Positions 38,065 to 51,929 of a stretch of DNA of 64,000 bases are shown here, in pieces. The DNA is from a virus. Both the position numbers and the translations under genes were made by a program. The DNA lies in IMG/VR virus record IMGVR_UViG_3300042882_001046, positions 32,001 to 96,000 of that record. One strand, written 5' to 3'. The first letter of the stretch is position 1, and each line of letters starts with the position of its first letter. The notes beneath the pieces were generated by a model. The model was not told the origin of the DNA. It was given only the letters and a program-made list of their open reading frames with translations, and did no database searches.

Positions 38065-39942
38065 ATGAGCATAGATAAAAAAATCTTAGAAATCTACAAT
38101 CAGATTACCGAATCACAAAAGTCAATTATAAAAACGATTGGTTTAAATGAAGCCGCTTTGGAAGCTCCATTAGATACTGTAAGAGTAAATTCTGGTTTTG
38201 GACCAAGATGGGGTAGATTACATAATGGTGTTGATTTAGCTGCGGACGCAGCAAATGTTAAATCTCCTGCGGATGGTGTTGTTGACATTGCCGCAATCAA
38301 AAATGATGATTGTGGAGGTACTATCATGATTAATCATGCTGACGGTTATAAATCAGGGTATTGCCACATGCAAAAAATTAATGTAAGAGCAGGTCAAAAA
38401 GTTCAAAAAGGTGAAGTAATCGGAATTAGTGGTGGTGGTCCTAATGACCCTGGTAAAGGTAGAAGTGATGGTAGACATTTACATTTTACTTTAAGAAAAG
38501 ATGGTCAAGTTGTTGACCCTATGAATTTTATTGGCAAAGAAGGTATTGTCATGACAGGAAGTACCCCTGAATCCTCGTCTAAAGCATCAGAAGATGCGTA
38601 TGATTATGCAACGTCTAAAAATAAATCCACAACAAGTTCATCACCAAAATATGCTGAGGTTGTTGGTACAGTAACAAGTGCAGAAGGAATGAACGAAGAA
38701 ATACAAGAAATTTTAAAACTTTACGATATAATTCTTAAAGAAGCCTCTTCCGCAAGTAGTGAATTATTTGGTGGTAATAACGTAAAAATACCTGTAGACG
38801 GGGCTCACGCAGGTCAATCAGGATGGCAAAGTAATAATGCTTGGGATATTGCGGCACCCGTAGGTACACCTGTTTATGCATTAGCCGATGGAGTTGCCCA
38901 AACATTTTCAGACTATGGAAGAGAGGTTAGAGCAACCCAAGGAAAAAAACTTTACGGTCAAAGTTTTACAGTGAAAAGTGACGGAGGTCTTCCAAGTATT
39001 TATTACACACATTTGGAAGGCTCACCTGTAACAAAAGGAGCAACAATCAAGTGCGGTCAATTTTTAGGTTATATTATGGATTTTCCTAATAGTAGTTACG
39101 ACCACGTTCACATTGGAGTTGAGACTGGAAACATACGACAGTTTTTGAATGATGATGGTACAATGAAATGTGCAAAAGGTCAACAAATTACTGGAGGAGA
39201 AATTAGTAATTCTCCTTCTACTGATGACGCATCATCAAAAGCGTATGATTATGCCGTTAGTAAACAATCTTCACAAACATCATCAAGTATTCCAAAATAT
39301 GCAGAAGTTGTTGGGACTGTGACAAGTGCCGAAGGGTTGAATGAGCAGAGAAATTTTGGTAAAAATATATCAAACAGATATGGTAGGGTTATAATTCCAA
39401 AAGATGATAATCCAAAAATTAAATCTCCAATATCTGGTGTTATTAACAATAAAAAGTATTTTTCGGGTTGCGCAAATCAATTAACTATTGAAAATAATGA
39501 CAACGGAACTGTTTATTTACAATATTGTGGTATATCAAATGTAAAAGTTAGTAATGGTAGGAGAGTAAATGTTGGTGATGTATTAGGTACTACTGATTCG
39601 GATGTAGAAGCTATTATGTATGATAGTAGGTGGAATAGAATTAATATTCCTTCTAAGGATTTAAAAATAGATAAAAAAGAAAAGGATAAAGAAGAAGAGG
39701 TAGATAAAACAAGAAAAAGTTCTGACCCTGAGTATTTTGACCCTCTTATGGCATCTATTATGGGTATTCCAGGTAAATTGTTTCAAGATAAATATGATAA
39801 GTCAGGTAACAGAACAGAAAAAAGATATGGTGGTGTTGCCGACAAACAACAAGTAGACCCATGGGTTTTAAATTTCTTAAAAGACCCATTCAATAGAAAA
39901 AAGGTTAATGAAAATATAGAAAAAATTAAAAAGATGTTATAA
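38065..39942 (+). CDS. Multi-domain M23 peptidase (two intact domains plus one degenerate)
   Basis: HNGVD/Y.H/HLHF, then H..NAWDI/YYTHL/HVHIG, then a third domain without the Zn ligands; start moved to 38065. Confidence 0.85.
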   Translation: MSIDKKILEIYNQITESQKSIIKTIGLNEAALEAPLDTVRVNSGFGPRWGRLHNGVDLAADAANVKSPADGVVDIAAIKNDDCGGTIMINHADGYKSGYCHMQKINVRAGQKVQKGEVIGISGGGPNDPGKGRSDGRHLHFTLRKDGQVVDPMNFIGKEGIVMTGSTPESSSKASEDAYDYATSKNKSTTSSSPKYAEVVGTVTSAEGMNEEIQEILKLYDIILKEASSASSELFGGNNVKIPVDGAHAGQSGWQSNNAWDIAAPVGTPVYALADGVAQTFSDYGREVRATQGKKLYGQSFTVKSDGGLPSIYYTHLEGSPVTKGATIKCGQFLGYIMDFPNSSYDHVHIGVETGNIRQFLNDDGTMKCAKGQQITGGEISNSPSTDDASSKAYDYAVSKQSSQTSSSIPKYAEVVGTVTSAEGLNEQRNFGKNISNRYGRVIIPKDDNPKIKSPISGVINNKKYFSGCANQLTIENNDNGTVYLQYCGISNVKVSNGRRVNVGDVLGTTDSDVEAIMYDSRWNRINIPSKDLKIDKKEKDKEEEVDKTRKSSDPEYFDPLMASIMGIPGKLFQDKYDKSGNRTEKRYGGVADKQQVDPWVLNFLKDPFNRKKVNENIEKIKKML

Positions 39943-39943
39943 T

Positions 39944-39969
39944 AAAAAACCCACCATTAGGTGGGTTTT
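39944..39969. terminator. Bidirectional intrinsic terminator
   Basis: AAAACCCACC-atta-GGTGGGTTTT. Confidence 0.8.
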
Positions 39970-39991
39970 GTTTTTAAGGGAAAGTTATAAA

Positions 39992-40183
39992 TTATTTTAC
40001 TTCTTCTACTTTCTCAACATCAGCTTTAACTGAATCAACTGCCACTGCAGATGAATCAACTTTAACTGAATCAACAGCTACTGCAGTTGAATCAACCGCT
40101 TCTGTAGATTTACCAGTCCCGTTTCCGCAAGATGCTAACATTGTTGTTGCTGCAATTGCAAATAGTGCTACGATTTTTTTCAT
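39992..40183 (-). CDS. Small lipoprotein with AVAVDS repeats
   Basis: Lipobox LASC; start moved to 40183 (MKKIVAL). Confidence 0.75.
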   Translation of the reverse strand: MKKIVALFAIAATTMLASCGNGTGKSTEAVDSTAVAVDSVKVDSSAVAVDSVKADVEKVEEVK

Positions 40184-40299
40184 GTTTTTTTGTTTTTTGT
40201 TTGTTATGTATTTTATTAACTTATGAACCATAAATATATGAAGAATTATCTTATGTGTCAATTATTTTAAAAGTTTTTTTTTGTTAAAATTTTGTTATG

Positions 40300-40385
40300 C
40301 GGAGAGTGTTGGGCTCGAACCAACGCGGCTGTTACACCCTACCTGTTTAGCAAACAGGCCCCTTCACCAACTTGGGTAACCCTCC
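40300..40385 (-). tRNA. tRNA-Ser(GCT)
   Basis: Cloverleaf with long variable arm; anticodon arm CCTGT-TTGCTAA-ACAGG. Confidence 0.93.
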
Positions 40386-40724
40386 TTATTGTAATAATTG
40401 TATTAAATAATAAGATAATTTATATCCTGTAAACGCACCAAGAGCTGATGGTAATGGGAAAACAATCATTTTACCTAAATCTGTAACGTATTTTGGTCTG
40501 TTAACAATCTTACCCATATAAAAGTAATATGTTAAGTACCCTAATAACACCGCTAAATCCGTTCTTGTTGCAATGAATACAACAATAGTCGCACCAATAA
40601 AACCAAAAGTAAAATTATCTCTAACTCCTTCCCAAATTTCAAATGTGGTAGCCTCTTTGTACTCTTTAACAATTTTTTTAAACTTTGTTCTGTTTGTCTG
40701 TTTTTTTTTAATTTGTGATTCCAT
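40386..40724 (-). CDS. Small membrane protein inside the tRNA array
   Basis: 112 aa, 3 hydrophobic segments. Confidence 0.6.
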   Translation of the reverse strand: MESQIKKKQTNRTKFKKIVKEYKEATTFEIWEGVRDNFTFGFIGATIVVFIATRTDLAVLLGYLTYYFYMGKIVNRPKYVTDLGKMIVFPLPSALGAFTGYKLSYYLIQLLQ

Positions 40725-40725
40725 G

Positions 40726-40799
40726 TTGGAATAGATGGATTCGAACCATCGACATCTACCGTATCAGGATAGCGCTCTAACCAACTGAGCTATATTCCA
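40726..40799 (-). tRNA. tRNA-Ile(GAT)
   Basis: Canonical cloverleaf; loop CTGATAC. Confidence 0.93.
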
Positions 40800-40804
40800 A
40801 TGTG

Positions 40805-40974
40805 CTGTAAGGGAAGGAGTCGAACCTTCAAGAGGAGATTCAATTGATAACACAACGCTTGCAAGCTGGTGGTCTACCCCATATTATCAATCTATTTCTT
40901 TGTCCCCGCCCCCGAGACAGGAGGGTGCGTATGCCAAGGTCATAACTGAGACAACCTAATTTCGCCACCTTACA
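40805..40974 (-). ncRNA. Giant (170 nt) tRNA-like RNA with GTC (Asp) anticodon-like loop
   Basis: Acceptor TGTAAGG/CCTTACA-G, T arm GAAGG-TTCGACT-CCTTC, stem CCCTC-CTGTCTC-GGGGG, plus structured inserts in the D-loop and variable region. Confidence 0.75.
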
Positions 40975-40979
40975 ATTTG

Positions 40980-41066
40980 CGGAGGAACAGGGATTCGAAC
41001 CCCAGATACCCTTTCGAGTATGCCAGTTTTCAAGACTGGTGCAATCAACCGCTCTGCCATTCCTCC
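40980..41066 (-). tRNA. tRNA-Ser(TGA)
   Basis: Cloverleaf with long variable arm; loop CTTGAAA. Confidence 0.93.
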
Positions 41067-41070
41067 AAAT

Positions 41071-41170
41071 AAAAGTGTTTTGGTCAACCACTCGCTACCC
41101 ACCGCAGTATGACGATTCCCCCTGTGGTCATCGTACTTACGCCTAAGCCTTGTCCGTTGTAAACACTTTT
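41071..41170 (-). ncRNA. Candidate 100-nt structured RNA between tRNA-His and tRNA-Ser
   Basis: Perfect 10-bp closing stem AAAAGTGTTT/AAACACTTTT with a GC-richer folded interior. Confidence 0.5.
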
Positions 41171-41171
41171 G

Positions 41172-41245
41172 GGTGACTAACGGGAATCGAACCCGTGACA
41201 ACTTGAACCACAATCAAGCGCTCTACCTACTGAGCTATAGACACC
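41172..41245 (-). tRNA. tRNA-His(GTG)
   Basis: G-1:C73 extended acceptor; loop TTGTGGT. Confidence 0.9.
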
Positions 41246-41250
41246 ATATG

Positions 41251-41320
41251 TTGCGTGTATGAGGTTCGAACTCACTTGACCTTCCTTATGAGAGAAAGTT
41301 CTTTCCCACTAAGCCACGCA
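41251..41320 (-). pseudogene. Degenerate tRNA with CAT anticodon
   Basis: Intact T arm and CTCATAA loop, but ~3 nt are missing at positions 7-9 and the D arm is short. Confidence 0.6.
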
Positions 41321-41326
41321 GTTTAG

Positions 41327-41398
41327 TGGTTTTATTAGGACTCGAACCCAAACTCCGAAATCCGTAGTTTCGTGTGCTATCCATTACACCATAAAACC
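41327..41398 (-). tRNA. tRNA-Arg(ACG)
   Basis: Cloverleaf; loop CTACGGA. Confidence 0.92.
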
Positions 41399-41402
41399 GT
41401 TG

Positions 41403-41473
41403 TTGTCCCTCAGGGATTCGAACCCCAACTGGATGGACCAAAACCACCTGTACTACCGTTATACTAAAGGACA
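41403..41473 (-). tRNA. tRNA-Gln(TTG)
   Basis: Cloverleaf; loop TTTTGGT. Confidence 0.92.
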
Positions 41474-41481
41474 CTTTAGTG

Positions 41482-41561
41482 TGGGAGTGGAGGGATTCGA
41501 ACCCCCAATGTCGACGACCACAGATTTACAGTCTGCTAAGCAACCGTTGCTCAACACTCCC
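41482..41561 (-). tRNA. tRNA-Tyr(GTA)
   Basis: Long variable arm; loop CTGTAAA. Confidence 0.92.
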
Positions 41562-41562
41562 A

Positions 41563-41792
41563 AGTTAGGAAAGGAGAAGATGGTCGAGTGGACATCTCCT
41601 TTTACGATTGGCATTACTCAGGTGTATTTCTCCCAACTCCGATGATACCGACCAAAATACACTCTCATGTCATAGGTACCACCATTCCCCAATCAACCTA
41701 TAAAACGATAATAGAATGTCCCAGCCGTCTCCTTCTCTTATCTAACATACACTAACAGCTAAATACGGCTTGACTGATTATACTGTATGTTT
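41563..41792 (-). ncRNA. Candidate ~230-nt rod-like structured RNA between tRNA-Trp and tRNA-Tyr
   Basis: Nested stems GGACAT/ATGTCC, TTTTAT/GTAAAA, GATTGG/CCAATC and GTGTATTT/AAATACAC, plus a 5' hairpin AACATACA/TGTATGTT. Confidence 0.55.
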
Positions 41793-41794
41793 TG

Positions 41795-41868
41795 CACGGG
41801 TGGAGAGGTTCGAACTCCCGACAACTGGTTTTGGAGACCAGTACTCTACCAAACTGAGCTACACCCGC
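41795..41868 (-). tRNA. tRNA-Trp(CCA)
   Basis: Cloverleaf; loop CTCCAAA. Confidence 0.93.
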
Positions 41869-41873
41869 TTATA

Positions 41874-42116
41874 TTACCTATACTTCCTGATAATCTTCAT
41901 TATCTCTCCGATATCTGTAAGTTCCATCTTTTGTCCGACACGGATTGGATAGAATGCCACGGTAAATCCGTGGTTTCCACAAAAACGTTCGGTTACTCTT
42001 TTTCCATTAACTTTTTCAAGATAAATCCATGGAATGTTACCTGCGAATTCACATTTGATTCCCAGTTTGTCCATTCTTCTTCTGAAATCGTTTAATACTC
42101 TTGTGTCTGTTTCCAT
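41874..42116 (-). CDS. Hypothetical protein inside the tRNA array
   Basis: 80-aa ORF filling the gap between tRNA-Cys and tRNA-Trp. Confidence 0.65.
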   Translation of the reverse strand: METDTRVLNDFRRRMDKLGIKCEFAGNIPWIYLEKVNGKRVTERFCGNHGFTVAFYPIRVGQKMELTDIGEIMKIIRKYR

Positions 42117-42130
42117 AAGTTTATTTTTTG

Positions 42131-42202
42131 AGGTCGAACCCAGAATCGAACTGGGGTAATTAGTTTTGCAGACTAACGCCTAAGCCGCTCGGCCACCCGA
42201 CC
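42131..42202 (-). tRNA. tRNA-Cys(GCA)
   Basis: Cloverleaf, U73; loop CTGCAAA. Confidence 0.93.
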
Positions 42203-42208
42203 ATTGTT

Positions 42209-42442
42209 TTATTTAACCATATCAAAGTTAATCATATTCTCTGACATTAATTCACGAAGTTCATTTCTTATTTCCTGATATGCGTCATACTTGTCCTGTG
42301 GTAAATCATCGGAAGCATATTTAGTTTTCGCTCTCAATGATTGGTCCAAATCCCAAAGTATTGACCACATCTTCATTCCTTTAGTTGCCAAGTCGAAATC
42401 TTGTTGGTCCTCAGGTAAATTAAATTCTAAAACAGCTTTCAT
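42209..42442 (-). CDS. Hypothetical protein (MKAVLEFNLPED...)
   Basis: Start moved to 42442; small-protein type common in phages. Confidence 0.65.
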   Translation of the reverse strand: MKAVLEFNLPEDQQDFDLATKGMKMWSILWDLDQSLRAKTKYASDDLPQDKYDAYQEIRNELRELMSENMINFDMVK

Positions 42443-42620
42443 TTTTTTTCTCTTTATATTTTTTACATCTCTTTTTTGGTACTTCAACGTAATATGAACC
42501 CATAAACGATGAGAATACACCAACGTAGTTGGACCCAACCTCTTTTACATCATGGAGCACTGAACCCTCAAAAAGGTTGAAGAAGATGTCAGTACAGTCT
42601 TTTTTTGTTACAACTTTCAT
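42420..42620 (-). CDS. Hypothetical protein
   Basis: Start moved to 42620; TATATTTG element just upstream. Confidence 0.5.
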   Translation of the reverse strand: MKVVTKKDCTDIFFNLFEGSVLHDVKEVGSNYVGVFSSFMGSYYVEVPKKRCKKYKEKKNESCFRI

Positions 42621-42658
42621 ATTACAAATATACACAATTTTATTTAATTTTTCTAATG

Positions 42659-42732
42659 TGACCCCGCCGAGATTCGAACTCGGGACTCCTTCATTAAAAG
42701 TGAAGTGCTCTAGCCAACTGAGCTACGAAGTC
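42659..42732 (-). tRNA. tRNA-Lys(TTT)
   Basis: Cloverleaf; loop CTTTTAA. Confidence 0.93.
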
Positions 42733-42738
42733 TTATTG

Positions 42739-42811
42739 TGGTAACGGTCAGAATCGAACTGACGACACCTTGGTCTTCAGCCAAGTGCTCTACCAACTGA
42801 GCTACATCACC
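42739..42811 (-). tRNA. tRNA-Phe(GAA)
   Basis: Cloverleaf; loop CTGAAGA. Confidence 0.93.
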
Positions 42812-42816
42812 ATTTG

Positions 42817-42889
42817 TAGTCCCTGTAGGAATCGAACCTACGACATCTTGCATGTAAAACAAGCGCTCTCCCAACTGAGCTAAAGGACT
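42817..42889 (-). tRNA. tRNA-Val(TAC)
   Basis: Cloverleaf; loop TTTACAT. Confidence 0.93.
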
Positions 42890-42894
42890 GTTTG

Positions 42895-42968
42895 TACTCC
42901 GTACGGGGCTCGAACCCGTAATCTTCACCGTGAAAGGGTGACGACTTAACCAATTTGTCCAACGGAGC
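42895..42968 (-). tRNA. tRNA-Glu(TTC)
   Basis: Cloverleaf; loop CTTTCAC. Confidence 0.93.
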
Positions 42969-43022
42969 AATTATTCAACAAAAATACGACCAATAAATCA
43001 AAGAACCAAAAAACATCAAAAT

Positions 43023-43055
43023 AAAAAACCCCGAACCTTTTTACGAGTTCGGGGT
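43023..43055 (-). terminator. Intrinsic terminator (putative attenuator) upstream of tRNA array 1
   Basis: Minus strand ACCCCGAAC-tcgtaaaaag-GTTCGGGGT-TTTTT. Confidence 0.85.
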
Positions 43056-43088
43056 ATATAAAAAATTTAGTTTATTAATCTAAAAAAA

Positions 43089-43187
43089 TTATCCTATTTT
43101 GACATCCGAACTACATAATAGCATACGCTCATACCAACAAATCGATTGTTGTGTACTAAAGACCATATGTTTAAATGTAGTTTTCAT
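43089..43187 (-). CDS. Putative leader peptide 1, 32 aa: MKTTFKHMVFSTQQSICWYERMLLCSSDVKIG
   Basis: ATG-to-TAA ORF between a consensus promoter and a terminator; its composition mirrors the downstream tRNAs. Confidence 0.75.
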   Translation of the reverse strand: MKTTFKHMVFSTQQSICWYERMLLCSSDVKIG

Positions 43188-43205
43188 TGTTTCTTATATA
43201 TAGTA

Positions 43206-43236
43206 CAAAGATACAAAAAAATCTTTGGGTGTCAAA
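43206..43236 (-). promoter_or_regulatory. Bacteroidota sigma70-type promoter for leader 1 / tRNA array 1
   Basis: Minus strand TTTG-N19-TATCTTTG. Confidence 0.8.
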
Positions 43237-43261
43237 TATTTTTTTTAACTATTTATAAAAG

Positions 43262-43681
43262 ATGAAAACATTGAGACAAATCATTAAGGAAGAATTATTA
43301 CTTGAAAAAAGAATCACTCAAGTTAATTCGTCTTTAGAAGTAGTATTCCTATTTGACGTAAACAGGACCACTCACGCCTTTGATAGAGACACAAGAGATG
43401 ATATTGAAGGGTATAATGTAAGACCGATTGTTAACGCTGAAATTAGAGAGATTATCAGTACAGTAAAAAAAGATATTGCCGAAAAAATAGTTTCAAGGGA
43501 AATTAACCCTGAAGTAGATTTTGTTGTAAAGTCCTTAAAATGGGAATTAGCCATGGCAATAACTCCTGTTCATATTGGAGGAACTTATTGGCAATTAATT
43601 ATCAAAACAGTATTCAGAGAATCCAAATACAACCCTTTTAGAGTGGGTGAAAACCAATTGGTGATTTACTCAGACATTTAA
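43262..43681 (+). CDS. Hypothetical protein (MKTLRQIIKEELLLE N-terminus)
   Basis: 139 aa; TATTTAT upstream. Confidence 0.65.
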   Translation: MKTLRQIIKEELLLEKRITQVNSSLEVVFLFDVNRTTHAFDRDTRDDIEGYNVRPIVNAEIREIISTVKKDIAEKIVSREINPEVDFVVKSLKWELAMAITPVHIGGTYWQLIIKTVFRESKYNPFRVGENQLVIYSDI

Positions 43682-43772
43682 AAAAAAAAAGGGTAACACT
43701 AGTATCTGAATCGTTCCCGTGTTACCCAGTTTGTAATTGAGCTTGTGTATCTAAATCGTGCTCCTCAATCAC
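43681..43772 (-). ncRNA. Candidate small RNA with two loop copies of ACGAUUYAGAUAC
   Basis: TATCTTTG promoter element (43777-43784), two hairpins and a poly-U end. Confidence 0.55.
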
Positions 43773-43811
43773 AATACAAAGATACAAAAATATTTCGTAC
43801 CACAAAAAATA

Positions 43812-44522
43812 TTATCCCTGAATATTAAAATTAATCACACATCTGTGAGTTTTTCCGTAAAAAGGTTTAACCGAATGAACAATATCGTAAGGCCAAATTA
43901 TTAACATCCCTTTCTTTGGTCTAATAAAGTAAGACATTCCCCTAACGTGAAATGTAAATACCCCACTATATGGATGGTCATCAACTGGGTCTCCGTCAGA
44001 TAGATAATAACCACCAGAAAAGTTTAAAGTTGTTTCTTCATTTGGTTGCCATCTACAATGATTATGAGCGTTATGTCCACGACCTTCAGTTGGATTATAA
44101 TATTGCATCCAACTCTCAGTAATCATTGGTTTTCTGTTGTGTTCAAATCCAAGTTTGTCCAGCATCTCCATATAACCCAATTCTACCCTTTTTTTAATTT
44201 TCTTAACACATTCCTCATCTATATTAAGAAAATCGTTTGGCGGGGTCCAAAATCGACTACCAATGGGGTTATGTTCCGTTGGTTCCACCCACATGTCTTG
44301 CCTATTGTAGTTTACTTGATATGTAGATTGTCTTTGTTCGTCGTATTGTTCTGGTAACTCTTGACCCATCAATTTTTGTTGGTCGGTTAGAGCATTAAAA
44401 CCAAAATTATAAACTTCGTCTTGAAGTTCGTCATCTGTGAATACTTTCATAAACACAGGAATAGGTGCAAGATGAAAAAGATTCTCCTGACTTGTTTTAA
44501 CTAATGGATTTTTTACGTACAT
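43812..44522 (-). CDS. 2OG-Fe(II) oxygenase-like protein (TIGR02466-type)
   Basis: ESWMQYY, HNAHNH, SGGYYL and PKKG.L..WP...HSV motifs. Confidence 0.75.
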   Translation of the reverse strand: MYVKNPLVKTSQENLFHLAPIPVFMKVFTDDELQDEVYNFGFNALTDQQKLMGQELPEQYDEQRQSTYQVNYNRQDMWVEPTEHNPIGSRFWTPPNDFLNIDEECVKKIKKRVELGYMEMLDKLGFEHNRKPMITESWMQYYNPTEGRGHNAHNHCRWQPNEETTLNFSGGYYLSDGDPVDDHPYSGVFTFHVRGMSYFIRPKKGMLIIWPYDIVHSVKPFYGKTHRCVINFNIQG

Positions 44523-44535
44523 AATTTAAATCTTG

Positions 44536-44616
44536 TACCCCAAGAGAGACTCGAACTCTCACGACCGAAGTCATTGGTTCCTAAGACCAACGCGGCTACC
44601 GTTACGCCATCGGGGT
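44536..44616 (-). tRNA. tRNA-Leu(TAG)
   Basis: Long variable arm; loop CTTAGGA. Confidence 0.92.
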
Positions 44617-44619
44617 GTG

Positions 44620-44711
44620 TCATTATCGCTTCAGCCACATCGGGAAAGGCGCCTCTCCCGCGTTGTTTAAGTGTGTAACTTGCGCCGTATCTCACTGAGG
44701 TACGATAATGA
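44620..44711 (-). ncRNA. Candidate 92-nt structured RNA between tRNA-Arg and tRNA-Leu
   Basis: 9-bp closing stem TCATTATCG/CGATAATGA; internal hairpin CGGGAGAG-GCGC-CTTTCCCG. Confidence 0.5.
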
Positions 44712-44714
44712 TTG

Positions 44715-44788
<74 letters not shown>

Positions 44789-44792
44789 ATTG

Positions 44793-44878
44793 TACCGAGG
44801 GAGGGACTCGAACCCTCACGGCCGTTTACTGACCAAGGGATTTTAAGTCCCTCGTGGCTACCATTACACCACCTCGGC
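44793..44878 (-). tRNA. tRNA-Leu(TAA)
   Basis: Long variable arm; loop CTTAAAA. Confidence 0.93.
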
Positions 44879-44886
44879 ATTGTCTT

Positions 44887-44894
44887 ACAAATAT
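44887..44894 (-). promoter_or_regulatory. -7 promoter element for the Leu/Arg/Leu tRNA trio
   Basis: Minus strand TATATTTG 8 nt upstream of tRNA-Leu(TAA), downstream of a terminator. Confidence 0.65.
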
Positions 44895-44916
44895 AACCTT
44901 TATGGAATCATAAATC

Positions 44917-44951
44917 AAAAAAAACCCCAAACTTTTTTTTTAGTTTGGGGT
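44917..44951 (-). terminator. Intrinsic terminator ending the leader-2 operon
   Basis: Minus strand ACCCCAAAC-loop-GTTTGGGGT-TTTTTTT. Confidence 0.8.
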
Positions 44952-44977
44952 CCTATTATATAAAGTTATTACCTTTT

Positions 44978-45709
44978 TTATTGAGCATCAAACTCTTCTT
45001 CCCATAACGTATCAGAAGAATTTTCTTCTGTATTATAAGTGTGATTTAATTCAATTGTCATGTCATTGAAATTAAATACGAACTCTCCGTCTGACCCTTC
45101 ATTAATTTCCCAACCACCATAATGACTTTCAAGTTGATTATAACACCAATCTTCAATTGTTGACGGAACTGAATCACCATTTTCTTCAAATGAACTTTCA
45201 ATATAACCAGAATCCCCCGAACCATTATATCTTAGAGTTAATATTCCATCTTGTGGAATTTCTAAATCAGATAGAACCCCATCTTTTTCCCATTCTTCAA
45301 AAATTTCTTGACCTTCTTCTTCTGACCATTCAGTCCCACTAGCGTCTCCTCTATCATACCAAGACCAATAATGGTTAAATGAAATGTCTTTGTTTGCAGA
45401 ATTAATACTAATCTCAAACTTTTGCCATGACATCGCATCAATATCTGGTGTCTCACTACTATATAATTCTTGGTCAGACGCATACTTCGTAATTTTTTGA
45501 AGTATCGGTATCAACCCTGACGGAACGTCCGCTCTCCAGTTATTGGAGAAATGTGTCATTTGATTCCAATCTATATTATTATAGTTAAGTGTATCACCAT
45601 AATCATCCATCTCGAATTCAAACTCACCGACTTCCATTCCGAGAGAGCTCAAATAATTACAAACTCTTCTCAGGTATTGTTTTTCTTCTGTTGTTAAAAG
45701 TTTTTCCAT
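44978..45709 (-). CDS. Acidic protein with C-terminal DUF6878-like domain
   Basis: Y.GSGDSG.IE and YGGWEINEG..G.F.F motifs. Confidence 0.6.
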   Translation of the reverse strand: MEKLLTTEEKQYLRRVCNYLSSLGMEVGEFEFEMDDYGDTLNYNNIDWNQMTHFSNNWRADVPSGLIPILQKITKYASDQELYSSETPDIDAMSWQKFEISINSANKDISFNHYWSWYDRGDASGTEWSEEEGQEIFEEWEKDGVLSDLEIPQDGILTLRYNGSGDSGYIESSFEENGDSVPSTIEDWCYNQLESHYGGWEINEGSDGEFVFNFNDMTIELNHTYNTEENSSDTLWEEEFDAQ

Positions 45710-45720
45710 ATAAATAAATA

Positions 45721-46074
45721 TCAGTCTTCAAACTCTAATTTCATTGTTTTTAACATCCATTGGGGTCTTTGATTTGACGAGATGTTACTAATCCACTCTT
45801 TGGCTGAAGGTATGTAATTATTACAATCTTCTTTTACGTGTTGTTCTCCAACATATCGGGTATAAACTGTTTTTCCGTCTGAGTTTAAGAACTCAGTTCC
45901 AAATCTTTTTTCCATTTCAAAAATTCCTTCACTATGATGTCTAAACATTCTATGAAGAGAATCTCCAAACCAAGATTTGGTTTCATCTAACCATTCATGT
46001 AAATGAATGTAATCCTCAGGTTTTCCTCCAAACTTTTTGGCGGATGATTTTGCATGTAAATTTGGATGTGCCAT
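45721..46074 (-). CDS. DUF6915-like His-rich protein
   Basis: HP..HA.SSA.KFGG..EDY...H.W.D, HR..RHH.EG and EQHV.ED motifs. Confidence 0.7.
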   Translation of the reverse strand: MAHPNLHAKSSAKKFGGKPEDYIHLHEWLDETKSWFGDSLHRMFRHHSEGIFEMEKRFGTEFLNSDGKTVYTRYVGEQHVKEDCNNYIPSAKEWISNISSNQRPQWMLKTMKLEFED

Positions 46075-46076
46075 GA

Positions 46077-46310
46077 TTATTTAATTTGTGAGTTGTTTCT
46101 TCTTGCTTCCTCAGCTTCTTTGTAAACCCTAACCCATGTTAAAAATACATCAATAGGTGCTAAAATCCAACACATAATAATTAACGCCATACTCTCAAGA
46201 CCTGGAGATATTCCAAGACCACCTGACATAACATCTCTGTTCCATTTTCTAATTGACATGATTACGCAGTAAATGAAACAAACAACGTAATACGACCAAA
46301 ATAATTGCAT
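46077..46310 (-). CDS. Small membrane protein
   Basis: Start moved to 46310 (MQLFWSY); two TM helices. Confidence 0.6.
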   Translation of the reverse strand: MQLFWSYYVVCFIYCVIMSIRKWNRDVMSGGLGISPGLESMALIIMCWILAPIDVFLTWVRVYKEAEEARRNNSQIK

Positions 46311-46325
46311 AAATAAAAGTTTTAG

Positions 46326-46398
46326 TGGAGAATGAGGGAATCGAACCCACGACAACTTGAATGCAAATCAAGCGCTCTACCAACTGAGCTAATTCCCC
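46326..46398 (-). tRNA. tRNA-Ala(TGC)
   Basis: G3.U70; loop TTTGCAT. Confidence 0.93.
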
Positions 46399-46404
46399 TG
46401 TTTG

Positions 46405-46477
46405 AGCCTCCTGTCGGAATCGAACCAACGACCTACTGATTACAAATCAGTTGCTCTACCTGCTGAGCTAAGGAGGC
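46405..46477 (-). tRNA. tRNA-Thr(TGT)
   Basis: Cloverleaf; loop TTTGTAA. Confidence 0.93.
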
Positions 46478-46527
46478 ATTTGTGGGTGTATGCTCATCAC
46501 ATACTCATGGGTTCCCACAACCCGTTG

Positions 46528-46600
46528 AGCGGAAGACCAGGCTCGAACTGGCCACCCCCGACTTGGAAGGACGGTGCTCTACCAAATGAGCTACTTCCGC
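46528..46600 (-). tRNA. tRNA-Gly(TCC)
   Basis: Cloverleaf; loop CTTCCAA. Confidence 0.93.
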
Positions 46601-46605
46601 AATTT

Positions 46606-46681
46606 TGGCGGTCCCGACGGGATTCGAACCCGTATCTCGCACCGTGACAGGGTGGAATTGTAACCATTCAACCACGGGACC
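46606..46681 (-). tRNA. tRNA-Asp(GTC), CCA encoded
   Basis: Cloverleaf; loop CTGTCAC; ends in GCCA. Confidence 0.92.
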
Positions 46682-46709
46682 GTGTGTGGGGAGTTTCACC
46701 CCAAACTTT

Positions 46710-47201
46710 TTAATTTGTTAAGATGTGTTGATGTTCTCCGATTACTCGTTTTAAACTACTAACATATCTCTTATCAGACGCATATACCCTTCCGAGTAGT
46801 GCAAGATACTGATTTTTTGTCAAATCGTCTTTACCTTTTAACATATAATCTTGCCATAAAAAGTAATCATATACGCTAAGGTTCCAATCTGTATATTTTG
46901 AGTATCCGCTCTGAGTTTTACCAACTGAAGACGTTTCTCTTTTTGTTGGAACTCTCATTCCAAACAGATTGTTTGCCGTTTTGAACAATTTTGATGTAAA
47001 TGCTCCTGACTCTAACACAGCTTGTGCAAACACAATATCAGGAAATTTTATACCAAACTTAATTATCTGCTCGTACAATTCTTCTTTTGTCAACCTATCA
47101 TCTTGTGTCTGATAAGTTGTTTGTACTTGCTTCTCTTGTGCTTTTGTTGTCATTGTTCCTAACAATAACAACACAGTCAATAAGAATGTTTTTAACTTCA
47201 T
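46710..47201 (-). CDS. Secreted glucosaminidase-domain peptidoglycan hydrolase
   Basis: Signal peptide; AQAVLESG..S.L....NNLFGM and Y..D..Y motifs. Confidence 0.8.
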   Translation of the reverse strand: MKLKTFLLTVLLLLGTMTTKAQEKQVQTTYQTQDDRLTKEELYEQIIKFGIKFPDIVFAQAVLESGAFTSKLFKTANNLFGMRVPTKRETSSVGKTQSGYSKYTDWNLSVYDYFLWQDYMLKGKDDLTKNQYLALLGRVYASDKRYVSSLKRVIGEHQHILTN

Positions 47202-47281
47202 TTCTTTCTTTTTGTCTGTTTATGCTTCAGGATTACTCCATCCACGATACCACAACATTGGAAATTTTCCACCCACCTCAG

Positions 47282-47353
47282 CTGCTCCACCTGGGCTCGA
47301 ACCAGGATAAAAGGATTAACAGTCCTCCGTAATAACCATTATACGATAGAGCA
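47282..47353 (-). tRNA. tRNA-Asn(GTT)
   Basis: Cloverleaf; loop CTGTTAA. Confidence 0.9.
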
Positions 47354-47390
47354 AAATTATAATCAAATTTTCCAACAAAGGAAACTTTTG

Positions 47391-47464
47391 TCGGGATGGC
47401 TGGATTCGAACCAACGGCCTCCACGTCCCAAACGTGGCGCGATACCTGACTACGCTACATCCCG
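47391..47464 (-). tRNA. tRNA-Pro(TGG)
   Basis: C1-G72; loop TTTGGGA. Confidence 0.93.
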
Positions 47465-47469
47465 TACAT

Positions 47470-47500
47470 AAAAAAACCCTGAAGTATTAGTTCAGGGTTT
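47470..47500 (-). terminator. Intrinsic terminator (putative attenuator) upstream of tRNA array 2
   Basis: Minus strand AAACCCTGAA-ctaatac-TTCAGGGTTT-TTTT, 5 nt before tRNA-Pro. Confidence 0.85.
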
Positions 47501-47522
47501 AGATAATTGGCTATAATATTGT

Positions 47523-47621
47523 TTACCAACCACTCGCTTCTGAACTTACGCAAATAGTGCCCGCATCCCCATTAGGAGTTGTCGGTGTGTCTAAATTCGT
47601 ATTTGTGTTCATAGTTTTCAT
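47523..47621 (-). CDS. Putative leader peptide 2, 32 aa: MKTMNTNTNLDTPTTPNGDAGTICVSSEASGW
   Basis: ATG-to-TAA ORF upstream of the terminator; its composition mirrors the downstream tRNAs. Confidence 0.75.
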   Translation of the reverse strand: MKTMNTNTNLDTPTTPNGDAGTICVSSEASGW

Positions 47622-47625
47622 AGTG

Positions 47626-47657
47626 CAATATTACAATAAATATATTTAAAAACCAAA
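47626..47657 (-). promoter_or_regulatory. Putative promoter for leader 2
   Basis: Minus strand TTTG-N20-TAATATTG (one mismatch to TAnnTTTG); a TATTTAT motif overlaps the spacer. Confidence 0.5.
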
Positions 47658-47666
47658 AAATAAATA

Positions 47667-48449
47667 TTAGTTACTAAAACCTCTCAAATAAACATCATTT
47701 GTCATATTGAAATTAATCCTCATTGATGAGTTTGGATAAGTACTATAAACTCTATATTGACCCTGTGGAATTACATTCCCTGTATAATTAATCAAGTATG
47801 ATGACAACTGAGTATTTGTGTTCAACACTGTTTGACTATTGTTAGCACTTGACACTATTCTTGTACCGTTTTTCGCATAATAACCAATTCTAGTTTGTCT
47901 TTTTGTATCATTATTCATTGCCGAGACAGGAATCAAAACTAAAACCCAAGCGTTATCATTAACAGTATTTTTAGATATTTTTACTGTTGTAAAATTATAT
48001 GCCATTTTAGGGTTACCGTGTTCATCAACTCCACCACTTACTTGTGGTATGTCAGCCTGAATAACTTGTGGTAACACACCATTAGTCCAAAATGGCATGT
48101 TTAAATAATTGTTTAAATCTCGGTAATTGGTATTTTGAATACTCACCATTGTCCAACAAGAGTAAAATGGAACGCTTGTAGATTGTGGGTTTCTTGGAAC
48201 TGAGTTTTTAAGGTAATTAACAATTAATGTTGTTTTAGCTTGCTTTTCAATAAAAACATACGCCTTCAAATTAGGTGTTGAACTTGTCGTAACCCTTAAA
48301 TTAGGGTTCGTACTTGAAGTTGAGTTAAGTTCTTGGGATTGCTCAATTTTAGTTTTTTCGAAGTCTACTCCAGTGATGTCTTCTTTAGAACAAGACACAA
48401 CAAATACCGATAAGGTAAGGAATGATAATAATAATTGTTTGATTTTCAT
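47667..48449 (-). CDS. Lipoprotein, hypothetical
   Basis: Lipobox VVSC followed by SKED (Bacteroidota-style). Confidence 0.7.
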   Translation of the reverse strand: MKIKQLLLSFLTLSVFVVSCSKEDITGVDFEKTKIEQSQELNSTSSTNPNLRVTTSSTPNLKAYVFIEKQAKTTLIVNYLKNSVPRNPQSTSVPFYSCWTMVSIQNTNYRDLNNYLNMPFWTNGVLPQVIQADIPQVSGGVDEHGNPKMAYNFTTVKISKNTVNDNAWVLVLIPVSAMNNDTKRQTRIGYYAKNGTRIVSSANNSQTVLNTNTQLSSYLINYTGNVIPQGQYRVYSTYPNSSMRINFNMTNDVYLRGFSN

Positions 48450-48459
48450 GATTGTTTGT

Positions 48460-48741
48460 TTAAATGTATTTTTTAAAAATTGTTTCTAAGGTGTCTTCAT
48501 CTTCCCTACTTATAACATGAAATTTTTGAGATAACTTATCCATTTTCTCTAAAAATTCATCTTCTAAAATAGATGTTTTTGGTTTACCATTTTTATCAGT
48601 TTGTATTTGAGACAACACTGATTTAGGTAAATGGTTTTCTTCAACTAACCCTTCAATTAATTCTTTAATTTCTCTTGGGTCACAGGCCGTAACAAATTCA
48701 TACGGGTCAATGTCGATTTCTTCTACACAAAATTCAGGCAT
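48460..48741 (-). CDS. Hypothetical acidic protein
   Basis: 93-aa ORF. Confidence 0.6.
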   Translation of the reverse strand: MPEFCVEEIDIDPYEFVTACDPREIKELIEGLVEENHLPKSVLSQIQTDKNGKPKTSILEDEFLEKMDKLSQKFHVISREDEDTLETIFKKYI

Positions 48742-48766
48742 AATTATTTTTTTTTTAATAGTTTAG

Positions 48767-48840
48767 TGGACCAGCCTGGGCTCGAACCAGGGACCTTCAC
48801 ATTATGAGTGTGTTGCTCTAACCAACTGAGCTACAAGTCC
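48767..48840 (-). tRNA. tRNA with CAT anticodon (Ile2 or elongator Met)
   Basis: Cloverleaf, loop CTCATAA, paired G1-C72 (not initiator); its own TATCTTTG element lies just upstream. Confidence 0.88.
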
Positions 48841-48905
48841 AATTTGATACAAAGATAAACAATAAATTTGATTTTGGAAATTTTTTTGTGATATTTATAG
48901 ATATT

Positions 48906-49007
48906 ATGACAGACAAAAATATAACGTGTCTTTTGGGAACTAACCAAAAATATGAGAACTCGGGCGATTTGAGACGTGGAAAACCTCGAACCATAAACTA
49001 TTGCTAA
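48906..49007 (+). CDS. Small 33-aa ORF followed by a terminator
   Basis: MTDKNITCLLGTNQKYENSGDLRRGKPRTINYC; TATTTAT upstream. Confidence 0.4.
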   Translation: MTDKNITCLLGTNQKYENSGDLRRGKPRTINYC

Positions 49008-49023
49008 ATCTGTAGTATAATAT

Positions 49024-49057
49024 AAAGGGGTCGACTAAATTGACCCCTTTTGTTTTT
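49024..49057 (+). terminator. Intrinsic terminator
   Basis: AAAGGGGTC-gactaaatt-GACCCCTTT-TGTTTTT. Confidence 0.75.
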
Positions 49058-49090
49058 AATAAAAATAATATATCTTTGTAAAAAATTTTA

Positions 49091-49582
49091 GTGATGAGCA
49101 CTGTATTGGTATTAAATTTTGACTACACTCCGTTAAACACAACTAGTGTTTGGAGGGGGTTTGTGTTAGTTGATAAAGGAAAGGCAGAAATTGTAAAATC
49201 AGACGAAAATCCGATTGTTGCAGGATATAATACTTATGTACGTCCACTTATTATTAGATTACTGAAATATATCAAACATCGTTCAAGGACATTAAGGGCA
49301 AACAGAAGTCGAATATATAAAAGAGACGGATATGAGTGTGTTTATTGTGGGTCAAAAAAAGAGTTGACCTTAGACCACGTATTACCCAAATCAAGAGGTG
49401 GGACAAATGAATGGACTAACCTTGTTACGTCTTGTATGAAATGTAATCGTAAAAAAGCAGATAGAACACCAGATGAGGCCAAAATGAACATGAAATCTAA
49501 ACCATACATTCCACAAATTATGTACGAAGACAAAACTTTATTGAATGTTTGGAATGCGTATCAAGAATCATTCATTTCTTAA
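49091..49582 (+). CDS. HNH endonuclease
   Basis: VLVLN.DY.PL N-terminus, RD...C.YCG, T.DHV.P.S.GG...W.NLV.SC..CN..K. Confidence 0.9.
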   Translation: MMSTVLVLNFDYTPLNTTSVWRGFVLVDKGKAEIVKSDENPIVAGYNTYVRPLIIRLLKYIKHRSRTLRANRSRIYKRDGYECVYCGSKKELTLDHVLPKSRGGTNEWTNLVTSCMKCNRKKADRTPDEAKMNMKSKPYIPQIMYEDKTLLNVWNAYQESFIS

Positions 49583-50260: not shown

Positions 50261-51928
50261 ATGAGGGTATTAGGGTTTTCAGTAGGCCACGATAAAGGAG
50301 CGGTTATTATTGAAGATGGGAAAGTTATTGTGGGTATAACACAAGAAAGAATTTCTCGTGTTAAACATGATGGAGCACATCAAGGAGGACTTATACCTTT
50401 TGAGTCAATAAATTATTGTCTAAACTCAATTGGTATTACTTATAAAGAAATTGACCTTTTTGTTTATAGTACAACGGAGCTTGAGGATAAAACAGCTGCG
50501 GATTTTTTCAGAAAATATAATGACATTAGTTACGATAGATTATTTTTTATACCTCACCATTTAGCACACGCTTATTCAACATTCTTTAGTTCAGGATTTG
50601 ATGACGCTGCGGTTATTGTTGCCGACGCGTCAGGTAGTATATTAAACTTCAAAAATAAATTACATTTATGGTATGAAGTTGACCGTACGGGATTGAACCC
50701 TGATGAAGATTGGACAGAAGGAATTTCAATATATCATTTTAAGAAAAATGAATATAATGAAGTTTATAAAAAATGGATAAAATATCCTGTACCTATTGAT
50801 ACTAATGAAGGTGTGTCGGTTGGTACCGTATATTCACAAGGTTCTTTACAGTTAATCTATGAACCAAATGAACATACTTGGCCTGCAGGTAAATTAATGG
50901 GACTGGCATCTTATGCGGATGATGAAATTGTAAAAGAAGCCCCTGAATATGTTCAAGATTTAGGTGATGATATCTATATTCCCAATAACGCAATATACCC
51001 AAAAGTTACTTGGGGGTCTGATTTCTTTTCAAGAGCATGTGTTGCGGGAATATATCAAAGAGAACAAGAAAGAGCATCCTTAATTTTAGCAAAAATCGCA
51101 AAAGATAAAACAGGTTCAGAAAATGTATGTGTTGCGGGTGGTTCTTTTTTGAATTGTAATTCTAATGAAAGAATTTTAAATTCAGGTTTATATGAAAATT
51201 GTTATTTCATTCCGCCAAGCGATGATAGTGGAATTCCATTAGGTTGTGCTTGGTTTGCATATCAAAAATTAACCGATATTTCGGAAGTAGAACAATTAAG
51301 CCCTTATCTTGGTAAATCATACAGTAAAAACGATGTTGTTGAAGCACTTAACGAGTATCCAGGTTTAAAGTATACTGAATACGATAATTTTGATTTACTA
51401 ATCAATGAAATTAGTTATTGGTTAACACAAAATAGAGTTATTGGGTGGTTTCAAGGAGGTTCGGAGATTGGTCCAAGAGCGTTAGGTAATCGTTCTATAT
51501 TGGCATCTCCAATTAAGTCATGGATGACTGGTCATATAAACTCAGACATAAAGAAAAGAGAGTGGTATAGACCTTTTGCACCTGCAGTATTATTTGAGCA
51601 TCAATCAGAAGTTTTTGAATCTGATGTATATTCACCTTACATGTTGTTGACAACAACAGTTAAAGAAGATTGGATAAATAAAATACCAGCCGTAGTTCAT
51701 ATTGATAATTCTGCAAGACATCAATCGGTTACCGAAAAAAATAACCCTAAATTCTATTCTTTGATTAAAAAATTCTACGAAAAAACTAATGTTCCTGTTT
51801 TATTGAACACAAGTTTTAACGGACCAAAAGAACCTATTGTAGAAACACCTAAAGAAGCAATTAATACATTCTTAGAAAACAATTTAGACTACTTGGTCAT
51901 CAATAATTTTATTATCTCCAAAAATTAA
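50261..51928 (+). CDS. Carbamoyltransferase (NodU/CmcH family) 1
   Basis: GHD..A, ERISRVKH, HHLAHA, GKLMGLA, GG.FLNC..N, E.GPRALG.RS, K.RE.YRPFAP and NTSFN motifs. Confidence 0.9.
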   Translation: MRVLGFSVGHDKGAVIIEDGKVIVGITQERISRVKHDGAHQGGLIPFESINYCLNSIGITYKEIDLFVYSTTELEDKTAADFFRKYNDISYDRLFFIPHHLAHAYSTFFSSGFDDAAVIVADASGSILNFKNKLHLWYEVDRTGLNPDEDWTEGISIYHFKKNEYNEVYKKWIKYPVPIDTNEGVSVGTVYSQGSLQLIYEPNEHTWPAGKLMGLASYADDEIVKEAPEYVQDLGDDIYIPNNAIYPKVTWGSDFFSRACVAGIYQREQERASLILAKIAKDKTGSENVCVAGGSFLNCNSNERILNSGLYENCYFIPPSDDSGIPLGCAWFAYQKLTDISEVEQLSPYLGKSYSKNDVVEALNEYPGLKYTEYDNFDLLINEISYWLTQNRVIGWFQGGSEIGPRALGNRSILASPIKSWMTGHINSDIKKREWYRPFAPAVLFEHQSEVFESDVYSPYMLLTTTVKEDWINKIPAVVHIDNSARHQSVTEKNNPKFYSLIKKFYEKTNVPVLLNTSFNGPKEPIVETPKEAINTFLENNLDYLVINNFIISKN

Positions 51929-51929
51929 T

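Follow-up and report, generated by a model that had tools for sequence, protein, structure and literature searches.

Known leader-peptide attenuators include trpL, hisL, pheL and leuL, the multivalent thrL and ilvL, and pheM of pheST. In these systems, a short translated open reading frame (ORF) with regulatory codons is followed by an intrinsic terminator, whose 5′ arm can enter an alternative helix, and where the ribosome stands selects between the two helices. We analyzed a viral DNA stretch of 64,000 nucleotides (nt) from IMG/VR record IMGVR_UViG_3300042882_001046 (bases 32001–96000 of a 118,268-base-pair (bp) contig; hereafter the window), in which this order of elements precedes two arrays of transfer RNA (tRNA) genes. 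Three features of a leader-peptide attenuator are found there: a codon-enriched short ORF, an intrinsic terminator between the ORF and the genes, and an alternative antiterminator helix. As in thrL and ilvL, the leaders mix codons of several amino acids. The cargo sets the locus apart: the attenuator family controls biosynthetic or aminoacyl-tRNA synthetase genes, whereas here we find tRNA genes and a few phage ORFs, so we class the island as working like leader-peptide attenuators. The setting is also different, being phage-borne with Bacteroidota-type promoters, and instead of a run of one codon the leaders hold a checklist of about one codon per species, for up to 13 tRNA species. Unlike in the attenuator operons, the input would be the tRNA supply itself, and the product would feed straight back on the sensor. 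Attenuation turned onto tRNA genes with checklist leaders, as predicted here, is a variation on a known mechanism; in a full-text literature search we met no description of tRNA genes controlled by a leader-peptide attenuator.

T-box riboswitches likewise set read-through by tRNA state through a choice between terminator and antiterminator, but they bind uncharged tRNA directly and need no ORF; Rfam gave no T-box match at E ≤ 1 in 39900–49200. Phage tRNA clusters are known from T4, T5, large vibriophages, and crAss-like and huge phages. With 23 tRNA genes grouped in a virus genome, our island is such a cluster: a one-strand tRNA block in a tailed phage, beside translation-related genes such as a transfer-messenger RNA (tmRNA) gene (28510–28932). 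Unlike the other clusters, its set is non-redundant, complete, and arranged in blocks with predicted switches, and our literature search found no description of phage tRNA clusters regulated by such switches. Phage tRNA genes are usually viewed as passive cargo; the layout of this island and the wording of its leaders point to block-by-block feedback control. That phage tRNAs may counteract defences which cut tRNAs is discussed in one article (PMC12409363). The Anabaena trn operon, a long tRNA array, is induced under translational stress (PMC8421152) and, according to another paper, stands under the repressor TrcR (PMC10272220). The phage island would resemble it as an accessory tRNA array switched on when translation is impaired. 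However, trn is a bacterial element with a protein repressor, and the 2021 article on it (PMC8421152) nowhere uses the terms leader, attenuation or terminator and describes no leader mechanism.

Leader codons and a predicted antiterminator switch

The tRNA genes fall into the four positional groups proposed in the original prediction, which had been made from the letters of the DNA: array 1, array 2, a Leu(TAA)/Arg(TCT)/Leu(TAG) trio, and a solitary CAT tRNA. Two paralogous 32-codon ORFs that both start with Met-Lys-Thr, leader 1 (43187–43089, minus strand) and leader 2 (47621–47523, minus strand), precede array 1 and array 2, respectively. We counted leader codons by codon box over the sensing part, that is, where a stalled ribosome would leave the antiterminator strand (region 2) free. 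Codons 2–22 of leader 1 represent 13 of 13 array-1 tRNA species and, of the nine outside species, only Thr. The same stretch of leader 2 consists of 18 codons for Thr, Asn, Pro, Asp, Gly and Ala plus one Lys, one Met and one TTA. It thus represents 6/6 array-2 species and, of the 16 others, only Lys (codon 2) and the one TTA; AGA and CTN codons are absent. Fisher tests on codon boxes gave p = 2.8 × 10−5 for leader 1 and p = 3.8 × 10−4 for leader 2. Nineteen residues drawn from the phage's own composition would cover all 12 array-1 amino acids with a probability of 2.6 × 10−5, and twenty residues would lack every array-1 amino acid with a chance of 5.5 × 10−8. Among the 592 ATG ORFs of at least 25 amino acids (aa) in the contig, leaders 1 and 2 are alone in showing their respective compositions. 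The match between leaders and arrays is not due to chance.

The match extends to the choice of codon. AGA accounts for most Arg codons of the phage (2.59% of all codons, versus 0.34% for CGT), yet the sensing Arg codon of leader 1 is CGT, which fits the Arg(ACG) gene of array 1 and not the Arg(TCT) gene of the trio. Thus, leader and array correspond at the level of codons and not of amino acids alone. Searches of the Rfam leader families gave no match to the leaders.

Codons 26–28 of each leader form region 2 and can form 7 bp with the 5′ arm of the terminator that follows: AGUUCGG (43106–43112, minus strand) with CCGAACU in leader 1, and AGUUCAG (47540–47546, minus strand) with CUGAACU in leader 2. 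Both attenuator terminators are 10-bp hairpins followed by a T run. Terminator 1 (43018–43055, minus strand) has its hairpin at 43055–43028 with 6 G-C pairs, and terminator 2 (47467–47500, minus strand; hairpin 47500–47474) lies 10 nt before tRNA-Pro. We aligned 15 distinct attenuators from the window and its relatives and counted pairs per cell. The antiterminator helix was paired in 95.2% of the cells and the terminator helix in 98.5%, while sliding the antiterminator partner along as a control gave at most 52% pairing. The covariation score of the antiterminator was 0.223 versus 0.116 in shuffles, and 0 of 500 shuffles reached 0.223. Two of its 7 pairs change on both sides, one with AU 8, GC 6 and GU 1, and the other with AU 5, GU 2, UA 2, GC 1 and 5 unpaired. 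These sequence features, their conservation and their covariation are direct observations. Across lineages the nucleotides of region 2 are kept while the residues that they encode differ, and in a third leader, carried by relatives, they lie past the stop codon. Therefore, the constraint is on the RNA.

In the computed fold of nascent leader 1 RNA, region 2 was paired with codons 2–5. When that part of region 1 was left out, the helix between region 2 and the terminator 5′ arm (2:3) became the minimum-energy fold (−10.2 kcal/mol); the terminator had −16.8 kcal/mol. For leader 2 the values were −13.4 kcal/mol (antiterminator) and −12.3 kcal/mol (terminator). The stop codons lie 14–15 nt past region 2, so that a terminating ribosome would cover it, as in classical ribosome-mediated attenuation.

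Taken together, these results suggest that leaders 1 and 2 are ribosome-mediated transcription attenuators of their own tRNA blocks, a reading that includes the state of the trio and the basal promoter described below and to which we give a probability of roughly 0.6. A ribosome slowed at a leader codon that is read by a tRNA of the downstream block would leave codons 26–28 free; these would pair with the terminator 5′ arm, and transcription would read through. If the leader were read fast, the ribosome at the stop codon would cover region 2 and the terminator would form. Slow decoding of a block's own codons would thus raise the output of that block, and feedback would set in as its tRNAs accumulate. 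We infer the activity of promoters and terminators, the translation of the leaders and their response to tRNA supply from the sequence.

Relatives and the three states of the trio

We gathered 49 IMG/VR loci (numbered with L) using as anchor a 236-aa ORF of the trio unit, and searched them with ARAGORN and with a leader and terminator scan. Using DUF6878 as a second anchor added only three new loci, and a tblastn search of the 236-aa ORF against 50,697 phage records, aimed at cultured relatives, gave no match. The sensing parts of the leaders cover the tRNAs of their own units in L002 (6/6, 3/3 and 14/14), in L015 (8/8 and 15/15), and in L041 (8/8 and 8/9).

The trio exists in three states. 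In the clade with 84–85% identity (L002–L013, L019 and L048), it has a third leader of its own, with 22 codons that include TTA five times, CTT/CTA three times and AGA four times. The order is ORF, a region-2-like GUUCAG, terminator, TAnnTTTG, and trio tRNAs. Twelve of the 19 sensing codons belong to the trio, versus about 10.7% in phage usage (binomial 2.6 × 10−8). The leader 2 of this clade has no AGA or CTN and the same sensing codons throughout; it is identical to that of the window in L002, L005 and L006, and in L003 and L008–L010 it differs only past codon 22. In the second clade (L014–L017, L047, L018 and L041), the third leader is missing and the trio has no terminator in front of it; leader 2 contains AGA, CTN and TTR codons and covers 8/8 species of the merged unit. 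The third state is that of the window and L001 (99%). Here terminator, promoter and tRNA-Leu are collinear with the clade that has the third leader, and about 90 nt with the leader ORF and region 2 are missing; leader 2 has the form seen in the third-leader clade. The third leader was either lost in the window lineage or gained in the sister clade. The original prediction had explained the lack of AGA and the single Leu codon in leader 2 by the separation of the trio from array 2. Because leader 2 follows the state of the trio in all three cases, that link is strengthened.

The trio of the window retains a terminator and a promoter only and is thus probably expressed constitutively. Its tRNAs decode TTA and AGA, the codons that the phage uses most for Leu and Arg. 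A trio that stands under its own leader, is merged under a recoded leader, or is leaderless amounts to a natural experiment, and yields a single-codon prediction (AGA versus CGT).

Gene losses are also mirrored in the leaders. L040 has no tRNA-Ala gene, and a Gly codon stands in place of the Ala codon where its leader 2 would sense; it has no Lys, Val and Arg(ACG) genes either, and its leader 1 no longer contains K, V and R in the sensing part. Further away, tRNAs are few and leaders absent in L044 and L046 (56% identity), and L020–L039 have no tRNAs near the anchor gene.

We would extend the reading tentatively, at somewhat less than even odds: the leaders may be rewritable codon checklists that follow the moves and losses of tRNA genes, act as a separate homeostat for each tRNA group and sense the loss of host tRNAs, while the trio of the window was freed from its sensor and became constitutive. 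The likely use of such checklists would be to detect during infection that host tRNAs are lost, for example to defence nucleases that cut tRNAs or in host shut-off, and to supply no others than the missing ones. If the switch is real, it would be a compact, programmable sensor of decoding capacity and would reveal a way in which phages withstand host defences that deplete tRNAs.

Promoters, blocks and competing readings

The pattern TTTG-N17–23-TAnnTTTG occurred 20 times in the window versus 7.0 times expected, and none of 100 shuffles reached 20. In the Bacteroidota-type form (TTTG at −33, TAnnTTTG at −7), the island has four intergenic full matches on the minus strand, with spacers of 18–20 nt; between clades, the TA and TTTG letters of the −7 elements are kept and the two middle letters vary. 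Leader 1 is preceded by TTTG-N19-TATCTTTG (43236–43206, minus strand), which is kept in 6 of 7 lineages compared (L015 has the TTTG and no exact TAnnTTTG). A second promoter-like element, TTTG-N20-TATTTTTG (43010–42979, minus strand), lies between terminator 1 and tRNA-Glu, 10 nt upstream of the latter. It is kept in four lineages, with TA and TTTG fixed in L002, L040 and L041, and is absent in L015. Before the trio, TTTG-N20-TATATTTG (44919–44888, minus strand) ends 9 nt before tRNA-Leu(TAA); the −7 part, placed at 44887–44894 by the original prediction, is at 44895–44888, with TTTG 20 nt upstream. Two further elements of that prediction were also recovered: the one at the CAT tRNA is present as a −7 part, TATCTTTG (48857–48850, minus strand), 9 nt before the gene and lacking a TTTG at the −33 spacing, and the one near 42625 inside array 1 is a −7-type TATATTTG at 42632–42625 (minus strand), ahead of the ORFs that precede tRNA-Cys. 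Relatives carry TAAATTTG 10–11 nt upstream of tRNA-Cys. At three places, CAT, Leu(TAA) and Glu, a −7 element thus ends 9–10 nt upstream of the first tRNA, and by simple arithmetic (15 motifs in 9.2 kilobases) about 0.075 such placements would be expected by chance over 23 genes.

A further full pattern is an orphan (43806–43777, minus strand). It lies only ~50 nt ahead of a strong terminator, and its −7 region is a 12-nt copy of that of the leader 1 promoter. It would yield an RNA of about 70–90 nt or a degenerate leader without ATG (43680–43806, minus strand), and faces the 3′ end of a plus-strand ORF (43262–43681).

Terminators split the island into three blocks. Since the number of terminator-like sites in the region (11 versus 6.9 ± 3.0 expected) is not significant by itself, the argument rests on the individual hairpins. 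Block I comprises the CAT tRNA, two ORFs, leader 2, terminator 2, array 2 and four protein genes on the minus strand, and ends at 44921. The two ORFs (93 aa and a lipoprotein-like 260 aa; 47667–48741, minus strand) match no Pfam family. Array 2 (46325–47464, minus strand) runs Pro, Asn, a glucosaminidase ORF, Asp (with CCA), Gly, Thr and Ala, and its unit continues into ORFs for a small membrane protein, DUF6915 and DUF6878 (44978–46310, minus strand). The terminator before the trio (44911–44954, minus strand), predicted at 44917–44951, was found as a 13-bp hairpin at 44954–44921 followed by a T run. Block II, the trio unit (43812–44878, minus strand), holds Leu(TAA), Arg(TCT), a structured spacer of 97 nt, Leu(TAG) and the 236-aa anchor ORF, which is 2OG-Fe(II)-oxygenase-like. 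It closes with a 9-bp hairpin (43727–43691) followed by 11 T (43680–43727, minus strand), read by eye because its 17-nt loop is too long for the scanner. Block III, also on the minus strand, contains the leader 1 promoter, leader 1, terminator 1, the second promoter-like element, and thirteen tRNAs with four small ORFs and structured spacers. Array 1 (40299–42968, minus strand) begins with Glu, Val, Phe, Lys, two ORFs, Cys, an ORF, Trp and a 232-nt spacer RNA, and goes on with Tyr, Gln, Arg(ACG), a CAT tRNA-like gene, His, Ser(TGA), a 179-nt tRNA-like spacer, Ile(GAT), an ORF and Ser(GCT). A two-way terminator (39946–39969, minus strand) behind a small lipoprotein ORF closes the block. An Rfam Phe_leader match at 39941–39998 (28.8 bits versus a threshold of 55) was rejected, as it consists of the terminator hairpin only.

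Block I would be transcribed from the promoter at the CAT tRNA through the two ORFs and leader 2 to terminator 2 and on into array 2. The scan found no terminator between the CAT tRNA and leader 2, so these, with the two ORFs, are probably on one transcript. Block II would be driven by its promoter alone. In block III, a strong promoter would feed leader 1 and terminator 1 and, beyond them, the thirteen remaining tRNAs, while the element behind terminator 1 may act as a bypass or basal promoter for the whole of array 1 and probably supplies its basal level. The E. coli trp operon contains an internal low-level promoter, trp p2. The element could likewise give a basal supply with the attenuator closed, but unlike trp p2 it lies directly between the terminator and the first gene, would serve the whole array, and is a predicted promoter only. 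Because L040 and L053 have a TAnnTTTG-type element after the terminator of leader 2, the distant L054 has terminator and promoter and no leader, and array 1 has the 43010–42979 element, the basic module seems to run from terminator to promoter to tRNAs, with the leader as an optional upstream sensor. Within the window, array 2 alone, which has no promoter element between terminator 2 and tRNA-Pro, seems wholly dependent on read-through.

Of the original prediction as a whole, the link between the partition of the tRNAs and the leader codons stands and is backed by the relatives, but the cleanly non-overlapping transcription units do not. The CAT tRNA probably shares a transcript with leader 2, as no terminator follows it; the 43010–42979 element, which that prediction had not seen, could bypass leader 1 for all of array 1; and protein genes share the tRNA units. 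Moreover, leader 1 of the 85% clade still represents Ile(GAT) and Ser(GCT), although another terminator and promoter separate these two genes from it, and L040 violates the rule.

Several observations weigh against attenuation by leaders 1 and 2. The conserved 43010–42979 element lies downstream of terminator 1, and if it is strong, leader 1 would be dispensable for array 1. Leader 2 is preceded by a near-consensus TATATTTA only, conserved across clades, and by no exact TAnnTTTG. The antiterminator helix is short (6–7 bp); region 2 of leader 2 is unpaired in the minimum-energy fold, with no clear 1:2 hairpin. There are foreign codons in the leaders (Thr in leaders 1 and 3, TTA in leader 2). 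Among the relatives, L040 and L053 have TTR codons in leader 2 despite having no Leu(TAA) gene, leader 2 of L040 lacks AGA and CTN even though its Arg(TCT) and Leu(TAG) genes have no terminator in front of them, and Ala codons persist in L015 and L041, where a tRNA gene for Ala is missing. In a one-gene tree built from the anchor protein, the states of the trio correspond to three clades in an unresolved polytomy, so that few independent changes are involved. Finally, the coupling of transcription and translation in the host is an assumption.

We also considered that the tRNAs are expressed constitutively from the promoters 9–10 nt before CAT, Leu(TAA) and Glu and from internal ones, the hairpins shielding these promoters and the ORFs being relics or serving minor tuning. 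This would agree with the TAnnTTTG elements that follow terminators in the window (trio, Glu) and in L002, L040, L041 and L053. It would also agree with the trio of the window and with the distant L054, both of which have a terminator and a promoter and no leader, which indicates that the terminator–promoter module would work without a leader. However, neither the match between leaders and arrays by codon box, nor the rare CGT in leader 1, nor the covarying complement of the terminator arm inside a coding sequence would be explained, and array 2 has no promoter of its own behind the terminator. We regard constitutive expression as unlikely. Rather less likely still is a single long, largely unregulated precursor, in which hairpins are leaky or serve processing and stability, and RNases P, Z and E release tRNAs and mRNAs. 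The 23 tRNA genes and nearly all ORFs do share one strand, and protein genes are interleaved with tRNAs. Assembled contigs of four freshwater metatranscriptomes, searched over 40200–49100, give no ends, strand or level, and tRNA look-alikes of other organisms dominate their depth; contigs with at most two differences cover 42987–43176 (leader 1 through its terminator) and 47544–48028 (260-aa ORF into leader 2). The contig that runs from leader 1 past the terminator to 42987 would fit a long precursor weakly, as a hint only, since DNA carry-over is possible. Against such a precursor speak four hairpins with long T runs that look like canonical intrinsic terminators, promoter-like elements that restart each block, and the plus-strand gene (43262–43681) between blocks II and III.

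Far less probable than either is that the leader ORFs encode trans-acting small peptides or control the translation or stability of the downstream RNA rather than termination. In their N-terminal halves the leader peptides are conserved between clades, and passages on the Sinorhizobium trp attenuator describe a trans-acting leader peptide (PMC7298713). Yet these peptides vary freely towards the C terminus, whereas region 2 is fixed in its nucleotides; translational control of untranslated tRNAs would make no sense; and leader composition tracks the tRNA cargo.

The tRNA set, spacers and neighbouring genes

ARAGORN, a program that the original prediction had itself named for the purpose, reproduced the order and anticodons of its 23 canonical tRNAs for 19 amino acids plus one CAT tRNA. 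It placed all of them on the minus strand between 40299 and 48840 and found no tRNA gene beyond the island in the rest of the contig. The Rfam tRNA model scored 51–73 bits for 23/23 genes. The anticodons give one canonical gene per codon box, for 8 four-codon and 15 split boxes; seven four-codon boxes are read by U34 tRNAs, and CGN by ACG. The box that has no canonical gene is ATA, for which the candidate reader is a 24th, non-canonical tRNA-like gene with a CAT anticodon (41251–41320, minus strand). Its Rfam score of 24.7 bits is below the 29-bit threshold, and it has an odd D arm with no regular D stem and a 7-bp anticodon stem; it is kept in relatives, where the T stem covaries through compensatory changes. 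The gene may decode ATA (Ile2) or be a second Met decoder. The island is thus a complete minimal decoding set of 23 canonical genes and one odd CAT gene. Its bearer is an uncultured tailed lake-water phage. Genes for a major head protein, a portal and a large terminase are also present in the window, and the DNA metagenomes that contain the stretch are from lake water. This source and the form of the promoters make a lake Bacteroidota host likely.

The canonical CAT tRNA (48766–48840, minus strand; ARAGORN and Rfam) is an elongator Met or an Ile2 tRNA. It is not initiator-like: G1-C72 is a pair, and its anticodon stem has no run of G-C pairs. When the ATA and ATG codons of the leaders were followed across clades, they gave no clear Met-versus-Ile2 signal for this tRNA. 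The gene stands between Tyr and Gln in array 1 of the 85% clade (L002, 14124) and of L040, and alone at the head of the island in the window (48766–48840) and in the 78% clade (L015, 5895), so it has moved between units. As the original prediction had stated, only tRNA-Asp encodes CCA; the other 22 of 23 genes end in N73-C-(A/T), mostly C-A-A, and this shared non-CCA trailer after the discriminator base may be a processing signal. G−1 is encoded in tRNA-His.

A secreted glucosaminidase, likely a lysis enzyme, is encoded at 46710–47201 (minus strand) between tRNA-Asn and tRNA-Asp, inside the unit predicted to be gated by leader 2; we found no promoter pattern of its own. Within array 1, the 232-nt spacer between tRNA-Trp and tRNA-Tyr (41562–41793, minus strand) contains a structured module of about 135 nt that occurs in all clades, and twice in L002. 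The module has no Rfam match at E ≤ 1, is overlapped by RNA-library contigs, and may be a small RNA embedded in the array. The spacer between Arg(TCT) and Leu(TAG) (44617–44713, minus strand) is closed by a conserved long-range stem of 10 bp and that between His and Ser(TGA) (41067–41170, minus strand) by one of 9–10 bp; both stems are kept across clades at 78–85% identity of the anchor protein. The 179-nt spacer between Ser(TGA) and Ile(GAT) (40800–40978, minus strand) has a T-arm-like hairpin and a 7-bp acceptor-like stem at its end and resembles a tRNA with a large insert. At this place relatives have 570 nt with an ORF, a terminator and a promoter instead.

The tmRNA gene (28510–28932, plus strand), 12 kilobases from the island, specifies a 21-residue tag that ends in VVAA. 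Just past the island lie two adjacent Nol-like carbamoyltransferase genes (555 and 530 aa; 50261–53522, plus strand), and a gene for an ATP-dependent protease is found at 23858–25873.

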